Under the pieces are notes generated by a model. It worked only from the letters and a program-made list of their open reading frames with translations, had not been told where the DNA came from and did no database searches. From the NCBI GenBank assembly GCA_038874475.1, contig JAVZCJ010000004.1, forward strand, positions 48,127 through 72,126: a DNA stretch of 24,000 nt, read 5' to 3'. The stretch is from Nitrososphaerota archaeon (GTDB lineage: Archaea; Thermoproteota; Nitrososphaeria_A; Caldarchaeales; JAVZCJ01). Shown in pieces: positions 2,827 to 23,603 of the stretch. The stretch's first letter is position 1. Each line of letters begins with the position of its first letter. The position numbers and the translations under genes are program-made.

Positions 2827-3669
2827 TTATGTTTCCTGTATTACCTTTTTCCAATAATCGTTTAATTCATATACTTTTTCATCATCTCCAACTAAGCCTT
2901 CTTCAATCATTCTAAGCTTTACTACTTTAGGAGTAGGCATAGCTATATGTTTTTCTAAGATTGCAAGACGTTTATAATCTTTCAAAATTAATAATCTTAA
3001 TATTGTTTTACTTATATATTCAAGATGAGAACCACCTATTACTTCAAACCTTTTTGCATCAAAACCCAATTCTAGGTCTAATAATTCTTGTTTTTTCAAC
3101 ATTTTATTCCTTTCCCTATCTAAAAATGTTTTATATGCAGCACTTTTAGTCCAGGATACAAGAATGACAGGTACATCATATTTTATAGCTAAACTCATTA
3201 ATTTTCCAGATTGATATGCAAGCTTACCTTGTAATTCTCTAGCTTCACTTGCTAAAAAGGAAGTTTTGGCAGCTAATAGTTGTTTATGATATTGGTTTAC
3301 AAAACTATCAACTATAAAAGCTAGTGGCTGAAGTCCCTCATTTTTTATTATTTCTTCCCATTTATGAATAATAATTTTATGTTGTTCACTTAAGCTATCT
3401 ACACGAGTTATATACATGCGTTCCAAAATTGATTGATTAATATTAAGAGCCTTTGCCATTTGTAATAATCTAGATTCGTGAAAACCTTGTTCTGTATCTA
3501 AATAGAAAAATTCTCCCTCACAATTTTTAGATAAATTAAGTATTGTTTGAAGGATTATTGTTGTTTTTCCACTTCCAGGATCTCCATAAATAAGATTTAT
3601 TGCACTTGCTAAGAAACCTCCACCCATTAATTTATCTAAAATTTTACAACCAGTAGAAATATACCTCAT
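2827..3669 (-). CDS. RecA-superfamily ATPase, RadA paralog / KaiC-like (RadB/aRadC-type)
   Basis: The N-terminus ISTGCKILDKLMGGGFLASAINLIYGDPGSGKTTIILQ gives the RadA/RadB-type entry motif plus Walker A (GSGKT). Walker B is LAFIVDSF. The later IGGSHLEYISKTILRL block is typical of RadA paralogs. Its start overlaps the stop of the upstream 697-aa gene by 4 nt. Confidence 0.8.
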   Translation of the reverse strand: MRYISTGCKILDKLMGGGFLASAINLIYGDPGSGKTTIILQTILNLSKNCEGEFFYLDTEQGFHESRLLQMAKALNINQSILERMYITRVDSLSEQHKIIIHKWEEIIKNEGLQPLAFIVDSFVNQYHKQLLAAKTSFLASEARELQGKLAYQSGKLMSLAIKYDVPVILVSWTKSAAYKTFLDRERNKMLKKQELLDLELGFDAKRFEVIGGSHLEYISKTILRLLILKDYKRLAILEKHIAMPTPKVVKLRMIEEGLVGDDEKVYELNDYWKKVIQET

Positions 3670-5759
3670 CTCTCTCCCTTCCTTAAAATACTCATTAAGA
3701 CATTCTTTGCAATTTTTAATGCTCTTTCAGCTTCTTTTTCTCCTATGCTTAAGTCTGCTTTTTCAGCTTTATTCTTTATTTCTTCTAACCATTCAATATC
3801 CTCCATTTCTATTGGTTTTAGGCCTTCAATACATAAAGTTTCATACAATGCTTTAAATTTTTTCCATCTAGTTTTTTCTGGATTTGAAATTAATAATATC
3901 ATCACATGCCTAACTAGATTATAACTTAAAATAATTGATTGGCACCATTCTTGATGTAAAAATTTCTTCTCTATTTCGATTAATTTTTTAACAAGTTTTT
4001 CGTTAATTTTTAAATAAATTTCTTCTTCTTTAATATCTTCTTTCTTTTTTATAAAATTCCTTTCTTCCCATTCATTAATTGCAATAATTCCCTTTTCAGT
4101 TATTTCTATTTTTTCTTCATCATCTGAAGAAATTTTCAAATATTTTTTATCGATAAGTTCTTTAATCAATTCTCTTATATCATTTAATTCATATTTTTCT
4201 GAAAGATATGCTTGAATTGTTGCTATATTTACATTTTTTAATTGAAACATAAGCTTCATAATATTATATGCAACTTCACTTTTATTAAGGAAATCTTTTT
4301 TAAGAGTTGTAACATTTTCTCCTATTTCTTTTTCAAGTACATTTTCCATGTCTTTATCAATATCTATATTAAAATCTATTATAGGTGTAAGCATTAGAAA
4401 AGTTTTCATACCTTCATGTGTCATTACTTTCACAATACTTTCTTGAGGTGAAAGTTTTAATATAAAATTGTCTCCTTCTCTTCCTAATGCAAATACTTTA
4501 GATATTTCATTTGCAATATATGGATCTTCAATAGCTGTTATTATTAAATTTGGAGTTATACTATAAGCATAATTTGCTATCCATGTTGCAGAAGTATGCA
4601 ATAATAAACTAATATTCTTTGATGCTTCTTTAAGCATGTACATCAATCTTTCCATTACAGGTCTATAATCATATGGTAAAAGATGTATTTGGGGTAAAAG
4701 GTTTTGTAATTCATCTATAACTATAAGAATCTTTTCTTTCTTCCTTTTTAAAACTTGATGCAAAACACCTATAAACAATATTAGAAGGAAAGTTTTTTGT
4801 TCCCTATCTATTCCGCCTACTCTTAAGCATATTATTTCGCCTCTTTTTGGTAAAAAGTTTAAAATATTTTTTCCCTCATCAGAAAAAATTTTTGTTAATA
4901 AAAGCTTTTTAATATCTGCTTTTAAAATATCTGCTCTTCTCTTTTCAAAAAATCTATTTAAACCATCACTCCATAAATTTACTTGATCAACTCTTAATAT
5001 ATTTTCATATTCATATTGATTATAAAAGAAATCTGCTAATAAGCTTGCTTCTTCAATATCCAATGTGCATGCAACAGAAATGGCCATTGCTAAAATATTT
5101 GTCCAAATTTTTAAAGGTAATGGTTTCGCATCCATTGGATTAATTAAAGTATCAATACCAATATTATAAACCTTAGTTGAGGTAAAATTCTTAGGAACTC
5201 CAATGATATTAGATGAATCAAAAATAATTATTCCATTTTCTTTCATAGCAGCTTCTTTGATTATTTTACGCATAATGTTTAATCCATAAGATCCAAAAAT
5301 TGTTATGCCTCTTTCAAGATTTTCAAAATTAATTCCTGTTTTTGAAAAATATCCAAAAAAAGATTTGCCAATCCATTTATACCCTAAAATTATATCTGCT
5401 TTGATTTTATTATTAGAAGAAAAATTATTCATTTCTAAACTATCTTTAATAAATTTATTAATAATTTGCATTCTATTTTTTGAAAATAAGCTAGATATGA
5501 AAAGAGCTATTTTAAATGAAAAAATAAATGGTGATTTAAAAAAGTTTGCTATACTTTTTCTAATTCTTTTTGATATGAATGATAAAATTGCTATTATTGG
5601 TAATAAAAAAATTATGATTGTTAAGAAAGGAATAAACAATATAAAAATGAAAATTATTAAAAATATTGTAGTAAAAGGTAACATTTTTCCTATGAAATTT
5701 ATACTTTCTTCATCTAAAATTGTATCAAATTTTTCTCTTGATAAACTCTTTCCCATCAA
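3666..5759 (-). CDS. Membrane-anchored HerA/VirB4/FtsK-superfamily ATPase homolog with degenerate Walker A, plus C-terminal wHTH-like and helical domains
   Basis: Residues ~25-95 contain hydrophobic TM helices. The HerA-like core runs LERGITIFGSYGLNIMRKII (P-loop position, no GK[ST]), then LINPMD, then KILIVIDELQNLLP (Walker B, hhhhDE), then ISLLLHTSATW...NLIITAIEDPY. Residues ~495-565 look like a winged helix (ATIQAYLSEKYELNDIRELIKELIDKKYLKI...ITEKGIIAINEW). The first codon in the track is TTG (5759), but ATG at 5756 is the more likely start. Confidence 0.7.
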   Translation of the reverse strand: MMGKSLSREKFDTILDEESINFIGKMLPFTTIFLIIFIFILFIPFLTIIIFLLPIIAILSFISKRIRKSIANFFKSPFIFSFKIALFISSLFSKNRMQIINKFIKDSLEMNNFSSNNKIKADIILGYKWIGKSFFGYFSKTGINFENLERGITIFGSYGLNIMRKIIKEAAMKENGIIIFDSSNIIGVPKNFTSTKVYNIGIDTLINPMDAKPLPLKIWTNILAMAISVACTLDIEEASLLADFFYNQYEYENILRVDQVNLWSDGLNRFFEKRRADILKADIKKLLLTKIFSDEGKNILNFLPKRGEIICLRVGGIDREQKTFLLILFIGVLHQVLKRKKEKILIVIDELQNLLPQIHLLPYDYRPVMERLMYMLKEASKNISLLLHTSATWIANYAYSITPNLIITAIEDPYIANEISKVFALGREGDNFILKLSPQESIVKVMTHEGMKTFLMLTPIIDFNIDIDKDMENVLEKEIGENVTTLKKDFLNKSEVAYNIMKLMFQLKNVNIATIQAYLSEKYELNDIRELIKELIDKKYLKISSDDEEKIEITEKGIIAINEWEERNFIKKKEDIKEEEIYLKINEKLVKKLIEIEKKFLHQEWCQSIILSYNLVRHVMILLISNPEKTRWKKFKALYETLCIEGLKPIEMEDIEWLEEIKNKAEKADLSIGEKEAERALKIAKNVLMSILRKGER

Positions 5760-8129: not shown

Positions 8130-9545
8130 CTATTTAATAATCTCAATTACACTATCTGAAGTAACTTCTATTTCAAAATCTTTAAATCTCCTTTTTATAT
8201 TAACCCATTTAAATTTAATTTTCTCTCCTATATTTATTTGATTTATTTTTAAAGCATTATCGTGCCAAGCAATACCACTAATTATTTTCTCATTTCCAGA
8301 AATCCAGAAATAAATTTTTTCAACTAATCCATATTTTGTTTCAACTAATGTTAAAGGAGATTTTGATTTTAAAAAACCATATATAATGATATCTTTTTCT
8401 TCTTTAATAATATCATCTGGATTGTATTCCTTTATTTTATAATATGGAATATCTTCTATATCTTTTTTAAGAATCAAATAATCTTTCTCTTTCTCAATAA
8501 TGATTTCTTCTCTATCACCTTTAATATTCTTTATTCCCCTTTTTATAACAATAATATCATCTTTATTAATATCTAAATTTTTTGTTAAAAAGCATTTAAT
8601 TCTTACAATTTTATTTCCATCATAACCAAGAATACTTTTAAAATTCATTCCACGATCAATTATTTCAATAATTCTCAATTTTAAATTATTAACTATATCA
8701 TATTTTTCTTCTTTCTCTTCTTCTATTTTATTTTTATTATCAATTTTTATTATCCATGTATTCTTAGTTGTATGTACTTCAGATTTTTTTAATCTCACTT
8801 CAAATAAAATTACTTCATCGTTTATCTCTATATCATTAAATATATCTACTTTATCTCTCCATGCAACCAATTTTGTTTCATATGAATTATCTACTATAAT
8901 TGCTTCCTTTACATTTACTATTTCATTTTTTATATTAACACTTCTTAAGGGTTCAATATATTTGATTTTACATTTAATGTCAAAAACCCCTTCTTTATCT
9001 ATGACTTCTTTAAGTGGAAGAATATGATACAATACATCTGGTTGTTCATAATCTTCTTCCAATTTTTCTATTTTACCATTCTTTCCTATATTTAATTCTA
9101 ATCTATCAAACCTTTGTTTTACATATCCCCCTTCTATTTTAATAATGTCTCCAGGCTTAAGATTTAATTTTTCTACATTTAAAGCATTCTCATTCCATAA
9201 AATTAAATTAATTTTTCCTGTTTTATCTCCAATTTTCCCAAAAATATATGAGTGTTGGCCAACTTTTTTTAAAGGAGTTATAAAAAGTACTCTTCCAATT
9301 ATTGCAACATTTTTTAATCCTGAGACTAAATCTATTATTCTTGTTGTTAAAGTTTCTTTTTCAAGATTTTCAATATTATAATCTGGAAAGATATTTAGTT
9401 CTTCAGCTAAGATGAGTGCTGCTCCAAGTTTATTAAGAAAACGACTTTCTTTAATTTTTTCTTCTATTTTCTTCTCTATTTCTTCCCTTGTTAAATCTTT
9501 TCTTTTACTAATTATTAAAGAAATAATTTCTTCATAATTTTTCAT
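8130..9545 (-). CDS. RPA-like single-stranded DNA-binding protein with multiple OB folds
   Basis: The N-terminal helical segment ends in LGAALILAEELNI, as in archaeal RPA. It is followed by repeated OB-fold patterns, for example VAIIGRVLFITPLKK...GKIGDKTGKINLILWNENA...LKPGDIIKIEGGYVK. There is no zinc-finger Cys cluster. Confidence 0.7.
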   Translation of the reverse strand: MKNYEEIISLIISKRKDLTREEIEKKIEEKIKESRFLNKLGAALILAEELNIFPDYNIENLEKETLTTRIIDLVSGLKNVAIIGRVLFITPLKKVGQHSYIFGKIGDKTGKINLILWNENALNVEKLNLKPGDIIKIEGGYVKQRFDRLELNIGKNGKIEKLEEDYEQPDVLYHILPLKEVIDKEGVFDIKCKIKYIEPLRSVNIKNEIVNVKEAIIVDNSYETKLVAWRDKVDIFNDIEINDEVILFEVRLKKSEVHTTKNTWIIKIDNKNKIEEEKEEKYDIVNNLKLRIIEIIDRGMNFKSILGYDGNKIVRIKCFLTKNLDINKDDIIVIKRGIKNIKGDREEIIIEKEKDYLILKKDIEDIPYYKIKEYNPDDIIKEEKDIIIYGFLKSKSPLTLVETKYGLVEKIYFWISGNEKIISGIAWHDNALKINQINIGEKIKFKWVNIKRRFKDFEIEVTSDSVIEIIK

Positions 9546-10113: not shown

Positions 10114-10917
10114 GTGATGTTAAAAATAGTAGAAAATGAACCAGCTGCAATATTATCTATAAATAATAGAAAAATACTTTTAGTAGCAGATTTGCATATA
10201 GGATTTGAATACGAATTATATGAATTAGGAATTAGAATTCCCCCTCAATCAAAAATAATTTCACAAAATTTTTTAAAACTTATAGAAAAAACTTCTCCTA
10301 ATGAAATATTTATTTTAGGAGATTTGAAACATAATATCCCTAAAGCATCTAAATTTGAATGGAAAATCCTTCCAGAATTAATTGAATCGATAAATGAAAA
10401 AGTTGATAGAATAAATTTAATAATTGGAAATCATGATGGTACTATTAAAAAACTTATCCCATCAAAAATATTTTTTTATTCAAGCCAAGGAATATTAATA
10501 GGGAATAATGAAAAAATTGGTTTAATACATGGTCATGCATGGCCATCTAGAAAAATATTGCTTGAGGCTGATACTATAATTCTTGCTCATATTCATCCAA
10601 CAATACAACTTAAAACATCATTTGGTTTTTCTTTTAGACAAAAAGCTTGGATAAAAATAGTTTTAAAAAGAGAAAAAATTTTAAAAAAGTTAATGATAAA
10701 AAATAAAAAGGAAATTAAAAAACCATTAATTAAAATGATAATTTTACCTGCTTTTAATGATTTCCTTTCAGGGACTCCAATTAATGTTGCTCAAAAAAAT
10801 GAATATGTTAGTCCATTATTAAGAATTAATGAAAAAATTATGAATGATGGTGAAATTTTCCTTTTAGATGGAACATTTTTAGGAAAAATAAAAAATCTTA
10901 AAAAAATGATTATTTAA
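10114..10917 (+). CDS. Calcineurin-like metallophosphoesterase (COG1407 / PdeM-like)
   Basis: The ordered metallophosphoesterase motifs are present: LVADLHIG, GDLKHN, GNHD, HGH, then AHIHP. The track start is GTG at 10114, and an ATG follows immediately at 10117. Confidence 0.8.
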   Translation: MMLKIVENEPAAILSINNRKILLVADLHIGFEYELYELGIRIPPQSKIISQNFLKLIEKTSPNEIFILGDLKHNIPKASKFEWKILPELIESINEKVDRINLIIGNHDGTIKKLIPSKIFFYSSQGILIGNNEKIGLIHGHAWPSRKILLEADTIILAHIHPTIQLKTSFGFSFRQKAWIKIVLKREKILKKLMIKNKKEIKKPLIKMIILPAFNDFLSGTPINVAQKNEYVSPLLRINEKIMNDGEIFLLDGTFLGKIKNLKKMII

Positions 10918-10921
10918 AATA

Positions 10922-10997
10922 TGGGGTCGGCGAGATTCGAACTCGCGATCTCCTGGTTCCGAGCCAGGTATCTTAAACCATGCTAGACCACGACCCC
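10922..10997 (-). tRNA. tRNA-Pro (anticodon CGG), 76 nt, no intron, CCA not encoded
   Basis: The reverse complement folds by hand as GGGGTCG TG GTCT AGCATGGTTTA AGAT A CCTGG CTCGGAA CCAGG AGATC GCGAG TTCGAAT CTCGC CGACCCC A. All four stems are complementary. U33 precedes the anticodon CGG. A TATA-like TTTATTTA lies about 27 nt upstream on the minus strand. Confidence 0.9.
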
Positions 10998-11116
10998 ATA
11001 TTGTGTATAGTAATACTTAAATAAACTAAAAATATATTTTTAAATATAAAAGTTTAAACAATTGTTTGTTGTTAAATAATTTATCTTTTAAGTGGCAAAT
11101 ATAGGAGGGATAAAAG

Positions 11117-13111
11117 ATAAAAGACTTTAGATTAGAAAAAATTGAAAAATCACAATTTTTAACAAATATTTTAGATGCTTTATCTTCACCTGCAAGATTA
11201 AAAATTGTTAAATCTTTAAGAAATCAAAATTTAAGTTATACAGATTTAATGAAAGCTATTGGTTTATCTAAAGGCCAGGATGCTGGAAAATTTTCCTATC
11301 ACTTAAAAAAATTATTGAAAACAGGGATAATTACTATTGATAATGAAACAAAATTGTATGCTATAACTCGTTTGGGAGATACATTATTAAAAATTTTAGA
11401 AGAAATGGAAGAAATAGATACTACTCATTTATACGTAAGAAAATCTCAATTTGTAATAGAAGTTTATGATAAAAATAAAATTATAAATGCTTTAGTAAAA
11501 GAAGCTGGTGCTCCAGTATCTTTAGCAAAACAAGTAGCTGATGTAATAGATGAAAAAATTAAAAATTTAAAAATAGAATATCTTACAGCACCACTCATTA
11601 GAGAAATTGCAAATGCTGTATTAATAGATTTAGGACATGAAAAATATCGTCATAAATTAACTAGAGTTGGTTTACCATTATATGATATTTCAAAATTAAT
11701 AAATTCAATATCAATGAATGAAATTCATAATATAATAAAGGATACTTCTGGAGCAGTTTTAAGAGAATATACTTTATTAGAAATTCTTCCAAGAAATGTG
11801 GCTGATGCGCATTTAGCAGGAAAAATAAATATTGATAATTTAGATTTTTGGCTAGTAAAACCATATAGAGTATTTTATTCTTCTAATTTATTAAATAAAT
11901 TTATTAATGAAAATGATGAGATTTTAATTGAAAAATTTTTATTTTATATTAATGAAGAAGCTGAAAAAATTGATTATGAACAATCTATAAATAATTTTTC
12001 ATCATTTTTATTAAATTTAAATAAAAATTCAGGAGAATATAATTTTAAAAAGAATCTTTATAAAATATTTTATTTCCTTTTATCTCAAAGAAAAAAAGAA
12101 AATCCTAAATTATTCATTTCTTTAACAGACCAAAATCTTTATGAAAAAATAGATTTTTTCAAAGAAATAATGGAAACAATTAAAAAAATAAATAATGAAT
12201 TTTTAGATAAAATAAATCTTATAGATAAATGTAGATTTATGATTCCATTTGAAGAAATAAAAATAGAAGATGGAATAGAAAATATTCATTTGATAGATTT
12301 TCTTATTAGAAAAAATGAAAGAAAAGCACTTTATGGTGGAGGAGGCCTTACAATATATTCTGGTGAAAAAGTGTATGGGTCATTTACAATAAATATTCCA
12401 AGAATATTTTATGAAAGTAAAGGGAATGAGGAAAAATTTCATAGTGAAGTTGAAGAAGTTTTTAAAACATGCTATAAAGGATTTTTAAGTTTAGCTAAAT
12501 TATTAATCGATAAAGGTATAAAAGAAAAAATTAATTTTTCTATATCTTTAGTAGGAGTTTATGAAACAATAAAAGCATTAACAAATGGAAATCCTGCTGA
12601 AAATAAAGATTCATTAAATTATCTTATTAAGTTTTTTAGATGGATTGATACTTTTACACGTAAAAATTCTTCAAAAAATATAGAAATTCTTCTTTCATCA
12701 TCTTCTTCTATAGGAATAATGAAAAGATTTATTTTAAATGATATCCAACAATACGGTATTAAGAAAGTTAGTCAAATTGCTTATAAAGAAGAAAATTTAG
12801 CATATTCGAATTTTATTATACCTGCTGAAGAAGAAATCGATATAGAAAAAAGATTAGAAATGGAAGCTGTGCTTCATACTTATTTAAGAGGAGGACATTA
12901 TACAATTATTCCAGTAAATGATGTAGAAATTATACATAGATTTTTTGAAAGGAAAAATCTATTTTCAAGTTTAGAAACAATTAGTTTTGGTCACAATCTA
13001 TTCTTTTGTGAGAAATGTAAGCATTATAGTTTTTCTAGCAAATGCCAGTCATGCGATTCTGAGAAACAATTGAAATATATTAAAGATGGATCATATTTTT
13101 CATCTTCTTGA
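11117..13111 (+). CDS. wHTH (ArsR-like) + ATP-cone + divergent anaerobic ribonucleotide reductase (NrdD)-like protein
   Basis: The track ORF starts at ATG 11249, but the frame is open from 11114 and encodes the first wHTH helices (ILDALSSPARLKIVKSLRNQNLSYTDLMKAIG...). An ATP-cone-like block spans about 11429-11671 (YVRKSQFVIEVYDKNKIINALVKE...IREIANAVLIDLGHEKY). NrdD-like blocks follow: ADAHLAGKINIDNLD, GSFTINIPRI, ISLVGVYETIKALTNG, AYSNFIIP, HTYLRGGHYTIIP, and a C-terminal CEKC...CQSC ribbon. The 5' end at ATA 11117 is a proposal; see findings. Confidence 0.65.
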   Translation: MKDFRLEKIEKSQFLTNILDALSSPARLKIVKSLRNQNLSYTDLMKAIGLSKGQDAGKFSYHLKKLLKTGIITIDNETKLYAITRLGDTLLKILEEMEEIDTTHLYVRKSQFVIEVYDKNKIINALVKEAGAPVSLAKQVADVIDEKIKNLKIEYLTAPLIREIANAVLIDLGHEKYRHKLTRVGLPLYDISKLINSISMNEIHNIIKDTSGAVLREYTLLEILPRNVADAHLAGKINIDNLDFWLVKPYRVFYSSNLLNKFINENDEILIEKFLFYINEEAEKIDYEQSINNFSSFLLNLNKNSGEYNFKKNLYKIFYFLLSQRKKENPKLFISLTDQNLYEKIDFFKEIMETIKKINNEFLDKINLIDKCRFMIPFEEIKIEDGIENIHLIDFLIRKNERKALYGGGGLTIYSGEKVYGSFTINIPRIFYESKGNEEKFHSEVEEVFKTCYKGFLSLAKLLIDKGIKEKINFSISLVGVYETIKALTNGNPAENKDSLNYLIKFFRWIDTFTRKNSSKNIEILLSSSSSIGIMKRFILNDIQQYGIKKVSQIAYKEENLAYSNFIIPAEEEIDIEKRLEMEAVLHTYLRGGHYTIIPVNDVEIIHRFFERKNLFSSLETISFGHNLFFCEKCKHYSFSSKCQSCDSEKQLKYIKDGSYFSSS

Positions 13112-13477
13112 TTTTAAAAGTAAAATTGCTTTTGCTAAATCTCCATTAGTTTCTTGTAAAGCCTTTTTTGCTTCTTCCATAGAAACATTTGCTTGTTGAG
13201 CTACTAATATTACATCGTCTTCTTTAATTTCTAAAGCTATTTCTTCTTTTTCTTCTAAAGGAATTTCAGTTTTTTCTTCAAAAATTTCTCCTCCAACTAT
13301 TTGAAATACTTGTTCACCTTCTAATTTAAGAGATGTAACTGAAGGAGATTTTACAATTATTTTTTTATCATTAAAATTTATTATAACTTCATTAGCTATA
13401 CCATAATTTTTTAAATCTAATCCTTGAAGCATTTTTGATTGCAATCTTCTTAATTCTCTAGGAGACAATTTTTTCAT
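13100..13477 (-). CDS. nac: Nascent polypeptide-associated complex protein (NAC alpha, NAC + UBA domains)
   Basis: The N-terminus reads MKKLSPRELRRLQSKMLQGLDL. A NAC beta-barrel block follows (VIINFNDKKIIVKSPSVTSLKLEGEQVFQIVGG). The C-terminal UBA-like block is DDVILVAQQANVSMEEAKKALQETNGDLAKAILLL. Confidence 0.9.
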   Translation of the reverse strand: MKKLSPRELRRLQSKMLQGLDLKNYGIANEVIINFNDKKIIVKSPSVTSLKLEGEQVFQIVGGEIFEEKTEIPLEEKEEIALEIKEDDVILVAQQANVSMEEAKKALQETNGDLAKAILLLKSRR

Positions 13478-20374: not shown

Positions 20375-21355
20375 ATGTCTGAAAAATATGAAATTTCAAG
20401 AAAAGAAATCGAGATACTAAAGATACTAAGCGAGTCAACAGAACCTATCGGATCAACAATTATTCGACGAGAGCTAGAGAAAAGAGGTTTTTTTCTTAGT
20501 GAAAGAACTATAAGATATCATCTTAAATTATTAGAATTAAAAGGTTTAGTTTCAGGACATGAGCGAAGTGGAAGAACTATAACTAGTAAAGGTTTAGAAG
20601 AATTAAGTAGAGCTTTAGTATCTTATAGACTTGGCTTTGTTATTACTCGCTTTTTATCAATGGCTTATTCAGTTACGTATGATCCAATTGCAGATTCTGG
20701 AATGGTGGTTGCTAATGTTTCAATTATAGATAAATCTTTTTATGATAAAACTATTGAAATATTAAAATCTTTACATAAAGAAGGCTTATTATTAGCTCCA
20801 TATATTAAGGTGCTAGATGAAAATGAAGAATATCAAAACATAGTTACTCCAGAAGGAAAAATAGCTCTTTTTACAGTTTGCGATTTAACTATAGATGGTG
20901 TTCTTATACGTTCAGGAATTCCCTTATTCTTTAAATATGGTGGATTGGTTCAAGTAGTGAATCGAAAACCAATACGCATTATTGAATTAATTTCCTATGA
21001 AGGAACTACTATTCCTCCGCTTGAACTTTTTGTTCGAAGTAATCAAACTTCGATTATTAAAGTAATGAAGACAGGATCTGGATTATTGCCTGCTGCTTTA
21101 AGGGAAATTGTTACTGAAGCAAGAGAGAAAACGCTTAAGATTCTTTCAACATTAAAGGATAGAGAATGGGGAGGTATTTTAGCTGTAGGCGTTCCTAATG
21201 AACCAATTCTTGGTGTTCCAATAGCTATGGATAGGTTTGGTTTGTGTATGATAGGTGGTCTTACTCCTAGTGCAGCTCTTTTAGAGGAAGGTGTAAAAAT
21301 TGAAACATTTGCACCTCATTGTTTAATCCCTCTTGAAGAAATGAATAAAATATAG
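20375..21355 (+). CDS. nrpR: NrpR-family nitrogen regulatory repressor (wHTH + one NrpR/DUF128 domain)
   Basis: The N-terminal wHTH is ILKILSESTEPIGSTIIRRELEKRGFFLSERTIRYHLKLLELKGLV...GRTITSKGLEEL. It is followed by about 230 aa matching the NrpR regulatory-domain pattern (RLGFVITRF...VANVSIID...LFTVCDLTIDGVL...). Confidence 0.8.
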   Translation: MSEKYEISRKEIEILKILSESTEPIGSTIIRRELEKRGFFLSERTIRYHLKLLELKGLVSGHERSGRTITSKGLEELSRALVSYRLGFVITRFLSMAYSVTYDPIADSGMVVANVSIIDKSFYDKTIEILKSLHKEGLLLAPYIKVLDENEEYQNIVTPEGKIALFTVCDLTIDGVLIRSGIPLFFKYGGLVQVVNRKPIRIIELISYEGTTIPPLELFVRSNQTSIIKVMKTGSGLLPAALREIVTEAREKTLKILSTLKDREWGGILAVGVPNEPILGVPIAMDRFGLCMIGGLTPSAALLEEGVKIETFAPHCLIPLEEMNKI

Positions 21356-21386
21356 CTATTTTTTATAAAAAATTATAATATGTTCT

Positions 21387-22769
21387 TTAATGTTTATTCA
21401 TTAAATAAATGTTTATTGACTTAGCAGCTCTCTTTCCAGCTTCTATAGCTTTTATAACAGATGCTGCACCACTAACTACATCTCCACCTGCAAAAATTCC
21501 ATTAGTAGCTTCCAATGTCTCTGGATTAACAAGTATGGTTTTTTGTTTATCTGAAATTTTGATTTTCCTTGAAGTATTTTTCGTTGCTATAATATTAGGA
21601 ATATGTTTTGTTGCTATAATAACAGTTTCTGTATTATAAAGAATTTTAGAATTTTTTTCTGGAATTAATTCAATTTCTCCAGTTTTATTATTTAGCATTT
21701 GCTTTAATCTTATAAGTTCAACTTGTTTTACCCATCTTTTTTCATTTCCAATTAATCTTACTGGCTTAGTAAATGGTTGAAGATTTACACCTTCTTCTAT
21801 CCCACGTCTAATATCATCAGCTCTCCCTACAATTTTATATTGATAGAATATGAAAACTTCTTCAGCTCCTAATCTAAGAGCACATCTTGCAGCATCCATT
21901 CCTCTAGCACCTAATACTGCAACTTTACCTTGAACCTTAATTGGAGTTTTGCTTTTATATGGAAAAGCATAAGCCCTCATTAAATTTATCCTAATAAGAA
22001 ACTCATTTAAAGAATAAACTCCACATAGATTTTCTCCTGGGATGCCTAAAAACTTGGGCAAACCTGCTCCTGTACCAAGAAAAATAGCATCAAATCCTTT
22101 ATTAAAGAGATCATCTATTGTTAGTGTTTTTCCTATGATAATATTCGTTTTTATTTCAACTCCAAGTTTTTTAATATATTCAATTTCTTTTTTAACAACC
22201 TTTTTTGGTAAACGAAATTCTGGAATTCCATAAATTAAGACTCCTCCTGCTTCATGTAATGCTTCGAAAATAGTTACGTGATGACCCATTTTTGCTAATT
22301 CCGTAGCTATACTTAAACCTGCAGGTCCACTACCTACAATCGCTATGCTTTTTCCAGTAAACGAAAAAGTTTCAAAAACATTCCTTTCTTTTTCTAAACA
22401 TTTATCAGCAACAAATCTTTCAAGAGCTCCTATATTAATTGGATCACCTATAGTATTTTTGCATCCCATAGCACATAATATTTCTTGTGGGCATACTCTT
22501 CCACAAATAGATGGTAAGCAATTTTTCTCACGAATTTTTTCATCAGCTTCTTCATAAGCACCTTTTCTAATGAGTTTTATGAAGCTTTTTATATCCACAT
22601 GCAATGGGCACATTTCAATGCATAATGGATTTTCACATTGAAGACATCTAGCTGCTTCAGCTAATGCTTGTTCTTCTGTATATCCTAATGCAACTTCATT
22701 AAAAGTTTTTAATCGTTCTTCTATAGGCAATTCTGGCATTGGGATTCTTTTTAATCTGATTTCCAACAT
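21387..22769 (-). CDS. nfnB: NADPH-dependent oxidoreductase large subunit, GltD-like (NfnB / SudA)
   Basis: The N-terminus carries two Cys clusters (CLQCENPLCIEMCP; CGRVCPQEILCAMGC). Two Rossmann GxGxxG motifs follow (VGSGPAGL and a second nucleotide site). The C-terminus has GIFAGGDVVSGAASVIKAIEAGKRAA. The product is 460 aa. The gene follows the small subunit gene after a 6-nt gap. Confidence 0.85.
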   Translation of the reverse strand: MLEIRLKRIPMPELPIEERLKTFNEVALGYTEEQALAEAARCLQCENPLCIEMCPLHVDIKSFIKLIRKGAYEEADEKIREKNCLPSICGRVCPQEILCAMGCKNTIGDPINIGALERFVADKCLEKERNVFETFSFTGKSIAIVGSGPAGLSIATELAKMGHHVTIFEALHEAGGVLIYGIPEFRLPKKVVKKEIEYIKKLGVEIKTNIIIGKTLTIDDLFNKGFDAIFLGTGAGLPKFLGIPGENLCGVYSLNEFLIRINLMRAYAFPYKSKTPIKVQGKVAVLGARGMDAARCALRLGAEEVFIFYQYKIVGRADDIRRGIEEGVNLQPFTKPVRLIGNEKRWVKQVELIRLKQMLNNKTGEIELIPEKNSKILYNTETVIIATKHIPNIIATKNTSRKIKISDKQKTILVNPETLEATNGIFAGGDVVSGAASVIKAIEAGKRAAKSINIYLMNKH

Positions 22770-22775
22770 TTGTAT

Positions 22776-23603
22776 TTAAACTCCTCTCATAATTTTTAAA
22801 GCATTTCTTTCATCTTCATCATACATATGAACCCTGGCTCTAAGTTCCTCAAAATCCACAAGATGAGCATCAAATTCTGGTCCATCTATACATGCAAACT
22901 TAGGTTTTCCTCCAATAGTTACTCGACAACATCCACACATACCTGTCCCATCAATCATTAAAGGGTTAAGATTGACGATCGTTTTCATTTTGTAAGGTTT
23001 TGTAACGCTTGAAATATTTCTCATTAATGTTATTGCTCCTACAGCGTATACTAAATCGAATTTTTCATTTGATTCAAGCAATTTTTTAAGAATATCATTA
23101 GCATATCCCTTAATTCCCTCAGAACCATCATCAGTGACTATGTAAAGTCTATCACTAATTCTTTCAAATTCTTCTTTATAAATTAATAATTTAGAGGTCC
23201 GTGCACTTATAATAGATGTTATGTTATTACCAACTTCTTTAAGTTTTCTTGCTCTTTCATAAGCTGCTGCAATAGCTACTCCTCTACCAATAATGCATAC
23301 TTTTCCATAAAATGAGATCTTGCTTGGTTTTCCCAAAGGGCCTACTATATCATGAATCGTATCTCCAACTTCTAATTCTCCAAGTTCTTTTGTTGATGCT
23401 CCAACTTCTTTAAAAACAAGCGTTATTGTTCCTTCTTGAGAATTCCAATCTATAAGAGTTAATGGAATTCTTTCACCATCTTCATTTACTCTTAGGATTA
23501 CAAATTGTCCAGATTTAGATTTTTCAGCAATTAATGGTGCTTTAACCTTTATAATTTTAATACTTGGAGCAATTTCCTTTTTAAAAATTATCTCATTTTC
23601 CAT
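22776..23603 (-). CDS. nfnA: Ferredoxin-NADP reductase-like FAD/[2Fe-2S] small subunit (NfnA / SudB, PyrK-like)
   Basis: The FNR-like fold shows PGQF-type GQFVILRV and RIPLTL blocks. The C-terminal cluster motif is GTGMCGCCRV...FACIDGPEF, as in PyrK/SudB. The product is 275 aa. AGGAG lies 9 nt upstream of the ATG. Confidence 0.85.
   Translation of the reverse strand: MENEIIFKKEIAPSIKIIKVKAPLIAEKSKSGQFVILRVNEDGERIPLTLIDWNSQEGTITLVFKEVGASTKELGELEVGDTIHDIVGPLGKPSKISFYGKVCIIGRGVAIAAAYERARKLKEVGNNITSIISARTSKLLIYKEEFERISDRLYIVTDDGSEGIKGYANDILKKLLESNEKFDLVYAVGAITLMRNISSVTKPYKMKTIVNLNPLMIDGTGMCGCCRVTIGGKPKFACIDGPEFDAHLVDFEELRARVHMYDEDERNALKIMRGV

Follow-up and report, generated by a model that had tools for sequence, protein, structure and literature searches.

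A probable nucleotide-sensing regulator derived from an anaerobic ribonucleotide reductase in a Nitrososphaerota archaeon

What is a protein that carries an ArsR-type winged helix in front of the body of an anaerobic ribonucleotide reductase (RNR)? The question is raised by one gene, at positions 11117 to 13111 on the plus strand of a 24,000-nucleotide stretch (the window) of contig JAVZCJ010000004.1 from the Nitrososphaerota archaeon assembly GCA_038874475.1. Public annotation names the product an anaerobic ribonucleoside-triphosphate reductase, and a first, sequence-only reading of the window had left two options, a nucleotide-sensing regulator derived from the enzyme and an enzyme that regulates itself. 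The evidence on these options, namely the loss of the catalytic cysteines and glycine, the lack of an activase, two other RNRs in the genome and a large family with the same losses, favours the regulator and leaves the self-regulating enzyme with almost no standing. Most likely the product regulates genes in response to nucleotides and has not been described before, and we judge it probable that it is a catalytically dead transcription factor that arose from an archaeal ATP-cone class III RNR (NrdD) joined to an ArsR-type winged helix.

The reading frame is open on the plus strand from 11114 to the TGA stop at 13109-13111 and, read from 11117, encodes 664 residues. Its parts and the positions that bear on catalysis, the latter located by alignment, are as follows.

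11117 to 13111, plus strand: whole gene, 664 codons, from ATA at 11117 to TGA, by frame reading; conserved in the genus mates G001 and G002
11168 to 11416, plus strand: ArsR/SmtB-type winged helix-turn-helix, residues 18-100, with the recognition helix GKFSYHLKKLLKTG at residues 57-70
11426 to 11701, plus strand: ATP-cone and linker, residues 104-195, with VRKSQFVIEVYDKNKI, then YLTAPLIREI, then YRHKLTRVGLP
11702 to 13108, plus strand: NrdD-like barrel body, residues 196-664, reduced in length and devoid of radical chemistry
11858 to 11878, plus strand: KPYRVFY, with Arg in place of the second catalytic Cys (C175 in Escherichia coli)
12224 to 12247, plus strand: DKCRFMIP, residues 370-377, not homologous to the finger loop
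12329 to 12367, plus strand: finger-loop equivalent LYGGGGLTIYSGE, residues 405-417, with Leu at the position of the thiyl-radical Cys (C384 in E. coli)
13007 to 13054, plus strand: C-terminal Zn ribbon, CEKC followed by CQSC, retained
13082 to 13108, plus strand: KDGSYFSSS, remnant of the glycyl-radical segment

A three-part order of winged helix, ATP-cone and NrdD-like body had been proposed from the letters alone, and Pfam domains, the predicted fold and matches in the PDB agree with it. The winged helix was matched by HTH_5/ArsR at residues 24-72 (E 2.7e-8), by DUF7347 at residues 19-90 and also by HTH_20, and the NCBIfam model HTH_metalloreg hit the N-terminus with E 4.5e-8, below the model cutoff. 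A sequence search matched the N-terminus to the PDB sequences of NolR and NmtR, DNA-binding repressors of the ArsR family, and ArsR-type helices and a beta wing are present in the secondary structure of the predicted model. The Pfam ATP-cone (PF03477), at residues 106-177, scored 24.6 bits with hmmscan and 29.7 bits in the genome-wide search (cutoff 25.8), and 34-35 bits in relatives. The Pfam NRDD domain (PF13597) was identified at residues 388-655 with 72 bits against a cutoff of 26.2 (E 5e-20), whereas the NCBIfam NrdD equivalog TIGR02487 reached 71.5 bits, far under its cutoff of 326.35. An AlphaFold model built from 147 relatives had a pLDDT of 90.8 and a pTM of 0.82. Its top Foldseek matches in the PDB were all class III RNRs (9d3x, 8p2c, 4coj and 1h79; E 3e-21 to 8e-14), coming from S. 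thermophilus, P. copri, T. maritima and phage T4 at 13-15% identity. Each NrdD block quoted in the sequence-only reading was found in place and aligned with its NrdD counterpart, including ADAHLAGKINIDNLD at residues 229-243, TINIPRI at 424-430, LVGVYE at 478-483, YSNFIIP at 563-569, GGHYTIIP at 592-599, CEKC at 631-634 and CQSC at 643-646. The Gly codon of KDGSYF was likewise verified at 13088-13090, with 6 residues remaining after it. The family signature blocks YLTAPLIRE (residues 155-164) and YRHKLTR(L/V)GLP (residues 177-187) are both present.

Does a protein with this fold still carry out radical chemistry? The protein and some 145 relatives were aligned with the NrdD of E. coli, in which we verified the reference residues C175, C384 and G681, and with three bona fide archaeal NrdDs. 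The radical machinery had been described as eroded, and the alignment bears this out with Arg, Leu and Ser at the three positions. At C175 the window protein has Arg (KPYRVFY), in a column without Cys in 145 family members, and at C384 it has Leu (GGGGLTI), in a column where the family shows I, L, Y or V and never Cys. At G681 it has Ser (KDGSYF); the neighbouring Gly is off register by one residue and is replaced by S, V or E in relatives that are 76-90% identical. Across the family the column of the radical Gly is mostly a gap or another residue, with Gly kept in a few members (P0109 has RRLGY). Both catalytic Cys are kept by the control NrdDs (P0048 and the second genes of loci L081 and L082). 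The Cys of DKCRFMIP, earlier put forward as the only candidate for the thiyl residue, proved to be misassigned: this segment precedes the true finger loop LYGGGGLTIYSGE, which has Leu at that position, by about 35 residues and is not homologous to it. In the close relatives P0003 (90% identical) and P0006 (76% identical) its Cys is replaced by Tyr and Ile, respectively, and it is therefore not the catalytic one.

Other features of NrdD were retained. The four Cys of the Zn ribbon are intact in the window protein and kept in approximately 96 of 145 family members, and the non-radical NrdD residues H232, G235, N426, P428, R429, G480, E483, R537, D542, Y563, G592 and G593 are all present. The invariant barrel residues of the family are those conserved in working NrdDs, and no new invariant residues were identified. 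Despite its NrdD fold, the window protein falls outside NrdD on every point that concerns the chemistry.

The rest of the genome (1.92 Mb, 97.5% complete) leads to the same answer. A profile search gave no second NRDD match, and the absence of an NrdG activase, earlier noted for the window, was confirmed and extended to the whole genome, where the best match to TIGR02495 had 56.7 bits (cutoff 131) and that to TIGR02491 had 30.4 bits (cutoff 126). NrdR is the bacterial RNR-specific repressor, composed of a Zn ribbon and an ATP-cone, and its model TIGR00244 had no match anywhere in the genome. The genome-wide search for other RNRs, a check proposed earlier, found a class I nrdA-nrdB pair and a second large subunit of class I/II type (class II-like, nrdJ), both carrying ATP-cones, and no canonical nrdD or nrdG. 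Because its catalytic residues are lost, NrdG is missing and other RNRs are present, the window protein cannot work as a glycyl-radical enzyme and is not the reductase on which the cell relies. Among 41 genomes of the order, NrdG was identified in 4 and is absent from 37, and the ortholog of the window gene was identified in 38.

Some further observations concern these RNR genes themselves. The nrdAB pair lies at G000:C15:6011-10564 (L002), and the genus mates show only one RNR large-subunit locus each, which may reflect a recent gain of nrdAB or its absence from the genus mates' assemblies. In the genus mates, the large-subunit frames (L029-L031; G002:C20 and G001:C43) are 1298 and 1736 residues long against 890 here and have a split Pfam match, which suggests inteins. 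Further, a hairpin rich in guanine and cytosine (GC), GAGGCCCACGTAGTGGGCC, is conserved 5' of nrdJ in relatives from the order (L069-L075 and L079, of family f2), where the surrounding sequence has otherwise diverged, and it is possibly a regulatory RNA or DNA element.

If the protein is no reductase, is it still under selection? The 665-codon open frame is kept in both genus mates. Pairwise ratios of non-synonymous to synonymous substitution rates (dN/dS) range from 0.16 to 0.21 for the whole gene, and none of the seven regions compared, among them the barrel and the 5' extension, reaches 0.5. The gene is not a relic, because its frame is intact, it is under purifying selection, and both the ortholog and its position are conserved. 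A HMMER scan of 1.8 billion cluster representatives at 50% identity returned 988 matches at E<=0.001 and 142 at E<=1e-30, and among the top matches listed most begin in the winged helix. The first 260 residues, used as query, detected the family in 268 of the 401 phylum genomes sampled (107 of 161 genera), so the phyletic survey suggested at the outset found the fusion phylum-wide; it is usually single-copy. Presence is uniform within taxonomic families, all genomes of a family either carrying or lacking the gene. Species-representative genomes gave at least 600 pattern matches, and 589 of those listed encode a relative. Named members come from Nitrososphaerota, Nitrososphaerales and Bathyarchaeia, and a form of 692 residues occurs in ammonia-oxidising Nitrososphaeria.

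Conservation is uneven along the protein. The winged-helix residues R27, L34, H62, L63, L66, Y81 and G87 are nearly invariant among 147 family members, the most conserved segment is the ATP-cone with the linker YRHKLTRxGLP, and the barrel is the least conserved part, being shortened and partly deleted in the order of the window genome. The ATP-cone is of a variant form, VRKS... with (Y/F)(L/V)(T/S)APLIRE, which the alignment also shows in working archaeal NrdDs. The pattern fits a duplicated ATP-cone NrdD that would have gained a winged helix and lost its chemistry and kept its ligand-binding scaffold.

Is the winged helix translated at all? The positions that bear on initiation are these.

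11104 to 11109, plus strand: Shine-Dalgarno-like GGAGGG, 7 nucleotides upstream of ATA 11117, by sequence reading; putative function
11249 to 11251, plus strand: ATG (Met45), the first canonical start

No ATG, GTG or TTG occurs between the in-frame TAA at 11111-11113 and the ATG at 11249, the codon at 11117 being ATA, and the public model of the identical protein begins at ATT 11168. Met45 lies within the winged helix, and a start at ATG 11249 would therefore leave a winged helix without helices 1-2. The 44 codons upstream of this ATG differ from those of G001 by 6 synonymous changes and 1 non-synonymous change, have a dN/dS of 0.04-0.48, and specify helices that vary hardly at all across the family (R27, L34). 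By our own calculation, the chance of a stop-free run of 44 codons at this base composition is about 0.02. Further, GGRGGG-ATAA-AAR-ATA is conserved in three genus genomes (the window genome, G001 and G002), and a relative with 76% identity has ATG-GAG-GGA-AAA where the genus reads TAG-GAG-GGA-TAA, with in-frame TAG and TAA. Initiation in the genus is taken to be non-canonical because the winged helix precedes the first ATG, and the conservation pattern indicates that the winged helix is almost certainly translated, from ATA 11117 or ATT 11168. Coupling to an upstream open reading frame was considered as an explanation and rejected, as the short upstream frames differ in frame and spacing between the three genus genomes. 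ATA was not seen to be enriched as a start downstream of GGAGG in a crude codon count.

Which genes keep company with the family? In the window, the 3' end of the gene overlaps that of NAC (13100-13477, minus strand) by 12 nucleotides, at 13100-13111. The upstream neighbour is a calcineurin-like metallophosphoesterase at 10114-10917, which is found likewise in genus and family mates and also adjoins the distant members P0055 and P0060 (L080 and L083); it may be functionally linked to the gene studied here. Elsewhere in the phylum, family members stand beside RNR genes. P0053 and P0074 are each followed directly by a second ATP-cone-NRDD gene, which has kept C175, a CCR finger loop and RITGYY, and in L081 a thioredoxin-like gene comes after nrdD. 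In Bathyarchaeia, a real nrdD lies downstream in 28 of 80 loci, usually with an nrdH-like gene between, and a class I/II RNR lies within 4 kb in 9 of 80, giving RNR adjacency in 37 of 80 in total.

As to other genes of the window, a tRNA-Pro(CGG) at 10921-10998 (minus strand) stands between the metallophosphoesterase and the gene studied here. The window also contains a RadA/KaiC-like ATPase (2827-3669), an unannotated frame of 697 residues (3666-5759), a 471-residue OB-fold protein (8130-9545) and, at 20375-23603, an NrpR-type nitrogen regulator (HTH_12 and NRD1_2) that adjoins the genes for a GltD-like Fe-S flavoprotein and for a PyrK-like electron-transfer subunit. A search for AmoA across the genome gave no match, and its control gave none either.

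We searched the promoters for operators. In Bathyarchaeia, the promoters of the family's own genes (L087-L166) share a strongly conserved TACTYTAATTTTTTAAACT, an imperfect inverted repeat with a TATA-like run. Of the 31 copies of the core ATTTTTTAAAC in 669 kb, 28 lie at -38 to -59 from the start of the family gene and only 3 elsewhere. TACTYTAATTTTTTAAACT may be an autoregulatory operator that overlaps the promoter. Its weight matrix gave no match above 9 bits at the own, nrdA or nrdJ promoters of the window genome, and inspection revealed no common element upstream of nrdJ and of the orthologs of the window gene across the order. A perfect 12-nucleotide palindrome, AAACAATTGTTT, is located at 11056-11067, approximately 50 nucleotides upstream of the gene, and was identified in G001 but not G002. 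As an operator it was rejected: about 1.4 copies are expected in the genome and only 3 occur, both copies outside this promoter are intragenic, and the promoter of G002 has none. CAAC-A-GTTG was spotted by eye upstream of nrdA.

How might such a protein work? Translation would begin at ATA 11117 behind GGAGGG, or at ATT 11168. The protein would bind DNA through the winged helix, probably as a dimer like ArsR proteins and NrdD, and the ATP-cone, possibly together with the old substrate and specificity sites of the barrel, would bind ATP, dATP, or ribonucleoside or deoxyribonucleoside triphosphates (NTPs or dNTPs) without turning them over. Nucleotide occupancy could then alter DNA binding and so control transcription, in a manner analogous to NrdR (PMC9110341). 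The likeliest targets would be genes of dNTP supply (nrdAB and the class II-like RNR) and the gene's own promoter, this being the weakest step for the window genome. A wider form of the proposal, which we hold only tentatively and at somewhat less than even chances, would make the family a master regulator of dNTP supply in Thermoproteota (Nitrososphaeria, Bathyarchaeia and relatives). Its ATP-cone would read the ATP/dATP ratio, its fossil active and specificity sites would read the NTP/dNTP pools, and its winged helix would set the transcription of RNR and related genes; the family would have been kept even in lineages that discarded the anaerobic enzyme, the window genome included.

Several points weigh against a dead, enzyme-derived transcription factor acting on RNR genes. 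The ATP-cone is divergent, with Ser in place of the Arg of the canonical KR pair and a Pfam score near the cutoff. Initiation at ATG 11249, if it occurred, would truncate the winged helix. A motif search, which is weak in a genome of 27% GC, found no operator common to the own, nrdA and nrdJ promoters. No RNR gene lies within 8 kb in the window genome or at 20 ortholog loci of the order (20 genomes), and in all 20 the gene has a fixed position, convergent with NAC, with HflX and MBF1 beyond. The distance from RNR genes, the strict conservation of the NAC, HflX and MBF1 neighbourhood, the metallophosphoesterase gene adjacent both here and in distant members, and RNR promoters in which no motif shared with the own promoter was found would all suit a nucleotide-sensing, DNA-binding regulator with a different regulon, made up of replication, repair or growth genes such as the neighbouring metallophosphoesterase. 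However, regulators may sit away from their targets, the family repeatedly adjoins RNR genes of two classes elsewhere in the phylum, and the sensor modules are RNR-derived; a non-RNR regulon appears unlikely to us. A last point against the transcription factor is the precedent of GlyXL, a distantly NrdD-like protein implicated in glycine synthesis in which the glycyl radical and catalytic cysteines are not conserved (PMC13759103) and by analogy with which a non-radical enzymatic role for the dead barrel is possible. As GlyXL acts in metabolism with an NrdD-like fold that lacks the catalytic residues (PMC13759103), and as polar residues of the barrel are conserved, the window protein might combine a new enzymatic activity with regulation. 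We rate this as very improbable because the residues that the barrel keeps are those that real NrdDs keep, with no new invariant ones, and because the barrel is the least conserved part, shortened and partly deleted in the order; in addition, the Zn ribbon is lost in about a third of members.

A role at the protein level, for example as a nucleotide buffer or an allosteric partner of an RNR with the winged helix used for protein contacts, would agree with the retention of the ATP-cone and of the conserved non-radical NrdD residues, and ATP-cones drive oligomerisation in RNRs and NrdR (PMC9110341). Yet the genome has no NrdD partner, its RNRs being class I and class II-like, and the recognition helix is nearly invariant across the family, as expected for contact with DNA, so this role has a small chance at best. 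A working class III RNR that regulates itself through the winged helix can scarcely be credited: the public name, the NrdD fold and the Zn ribbon speak for it, but the protein has Arg, Leu and Ser at C175, C384 and G681 and a cut-off C-terminal domain, scores 71.5 bits against an equivalog cutoff of 326, and occurs in a 97.5% complete genome that lacks NrdG and has two other RNRs. There is hardly more to be said for a decaying, functionless nrdD relic. An eroded, shorter barrel and the lost radical machinery would suit it, but every region has a dN/dS of about 0.2, three genomes keep the 665-codon frame unbroken, 20 of 20 loci of the order share one chromosomal position, 38 of 41 genomes of the order have an ortholog, and the family occurs in two thirds of the phylum sample. 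The nucleotide-sensing transcription factor thus remains the reading that we prefer.

What follows from it reaches beyond this locus. The database label of anaerobic RNR can mislead on anaerobic metabolism in metagenome-assembled genomes, because the family occurs in about two thirds of the sampled phylum genomes. Transcriptional control of RNR in archaea is largely unknown, and the family offers a concrete candidate regulator. It would also present a radical enzyme turned into a ligand-sensing module, as a series from full-length forms beside nrdD in Bathyarchaeia to a shortened form that has outlived the enzyme. To this series the window member adds the shortened end-member that has outlived both nrdD and nrdG, with a fixed position away from RNR genes and a non-canonical start.

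How does the architecture compare with known systems? With NrdD it shares the fold, the ATP-cone variant and linker, the ADAH..G, NLPR and GLxE motifs, the conserved R, D, Y and GG, and the Zn ribbon. It differs from NrdD in the loss of both catalytic Cys (thiyl and second) and of the radical Gly, in its truncated C-terminal domain, in the extra N-terminal winged helix, in having no NrdG partner and in its 13-15% identity to solved NrdDs. GlyXL, by its description, has neither winged helix nor ATP-cone, has an ACT-domain partner and is reported as an enzyme (PMC13759103). No description of a winged helix, ATP-cone and dead NrdD in one architecture was found in the literature. Regulators of the MocR/GabR type combine a winged helix with an aminotransferase-like domain of the pyridoxal phosphate (PLP) type, which serves as effector sensor. 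The window protein would resemble them in having an N-terminal winged helix and a full-size enzyme fold that binds a ligand in place of the ancestral catalysis, although folds and ligands are unrelated (a PLP aminotransferase in one case, an RNR barrel and ATP-cone in the other). Compared with NrdR, its DNA-binding domain is an ArsR-type winged helix and not a Zn ribbon, there is no match to the NrdR model, a dead reductase body of about 470 residues is attached, and no operator resembling an NrdR box was found. What the two have in common is a DNA-binding module joined to an ATP-cone and, for the window family, a frequent place beside RNR genes. By this analogy the family is plausibly a functional counterpart of bacterial NrdR in a phylum where NrdR is rare, as it is in archaea (PMC9110341).

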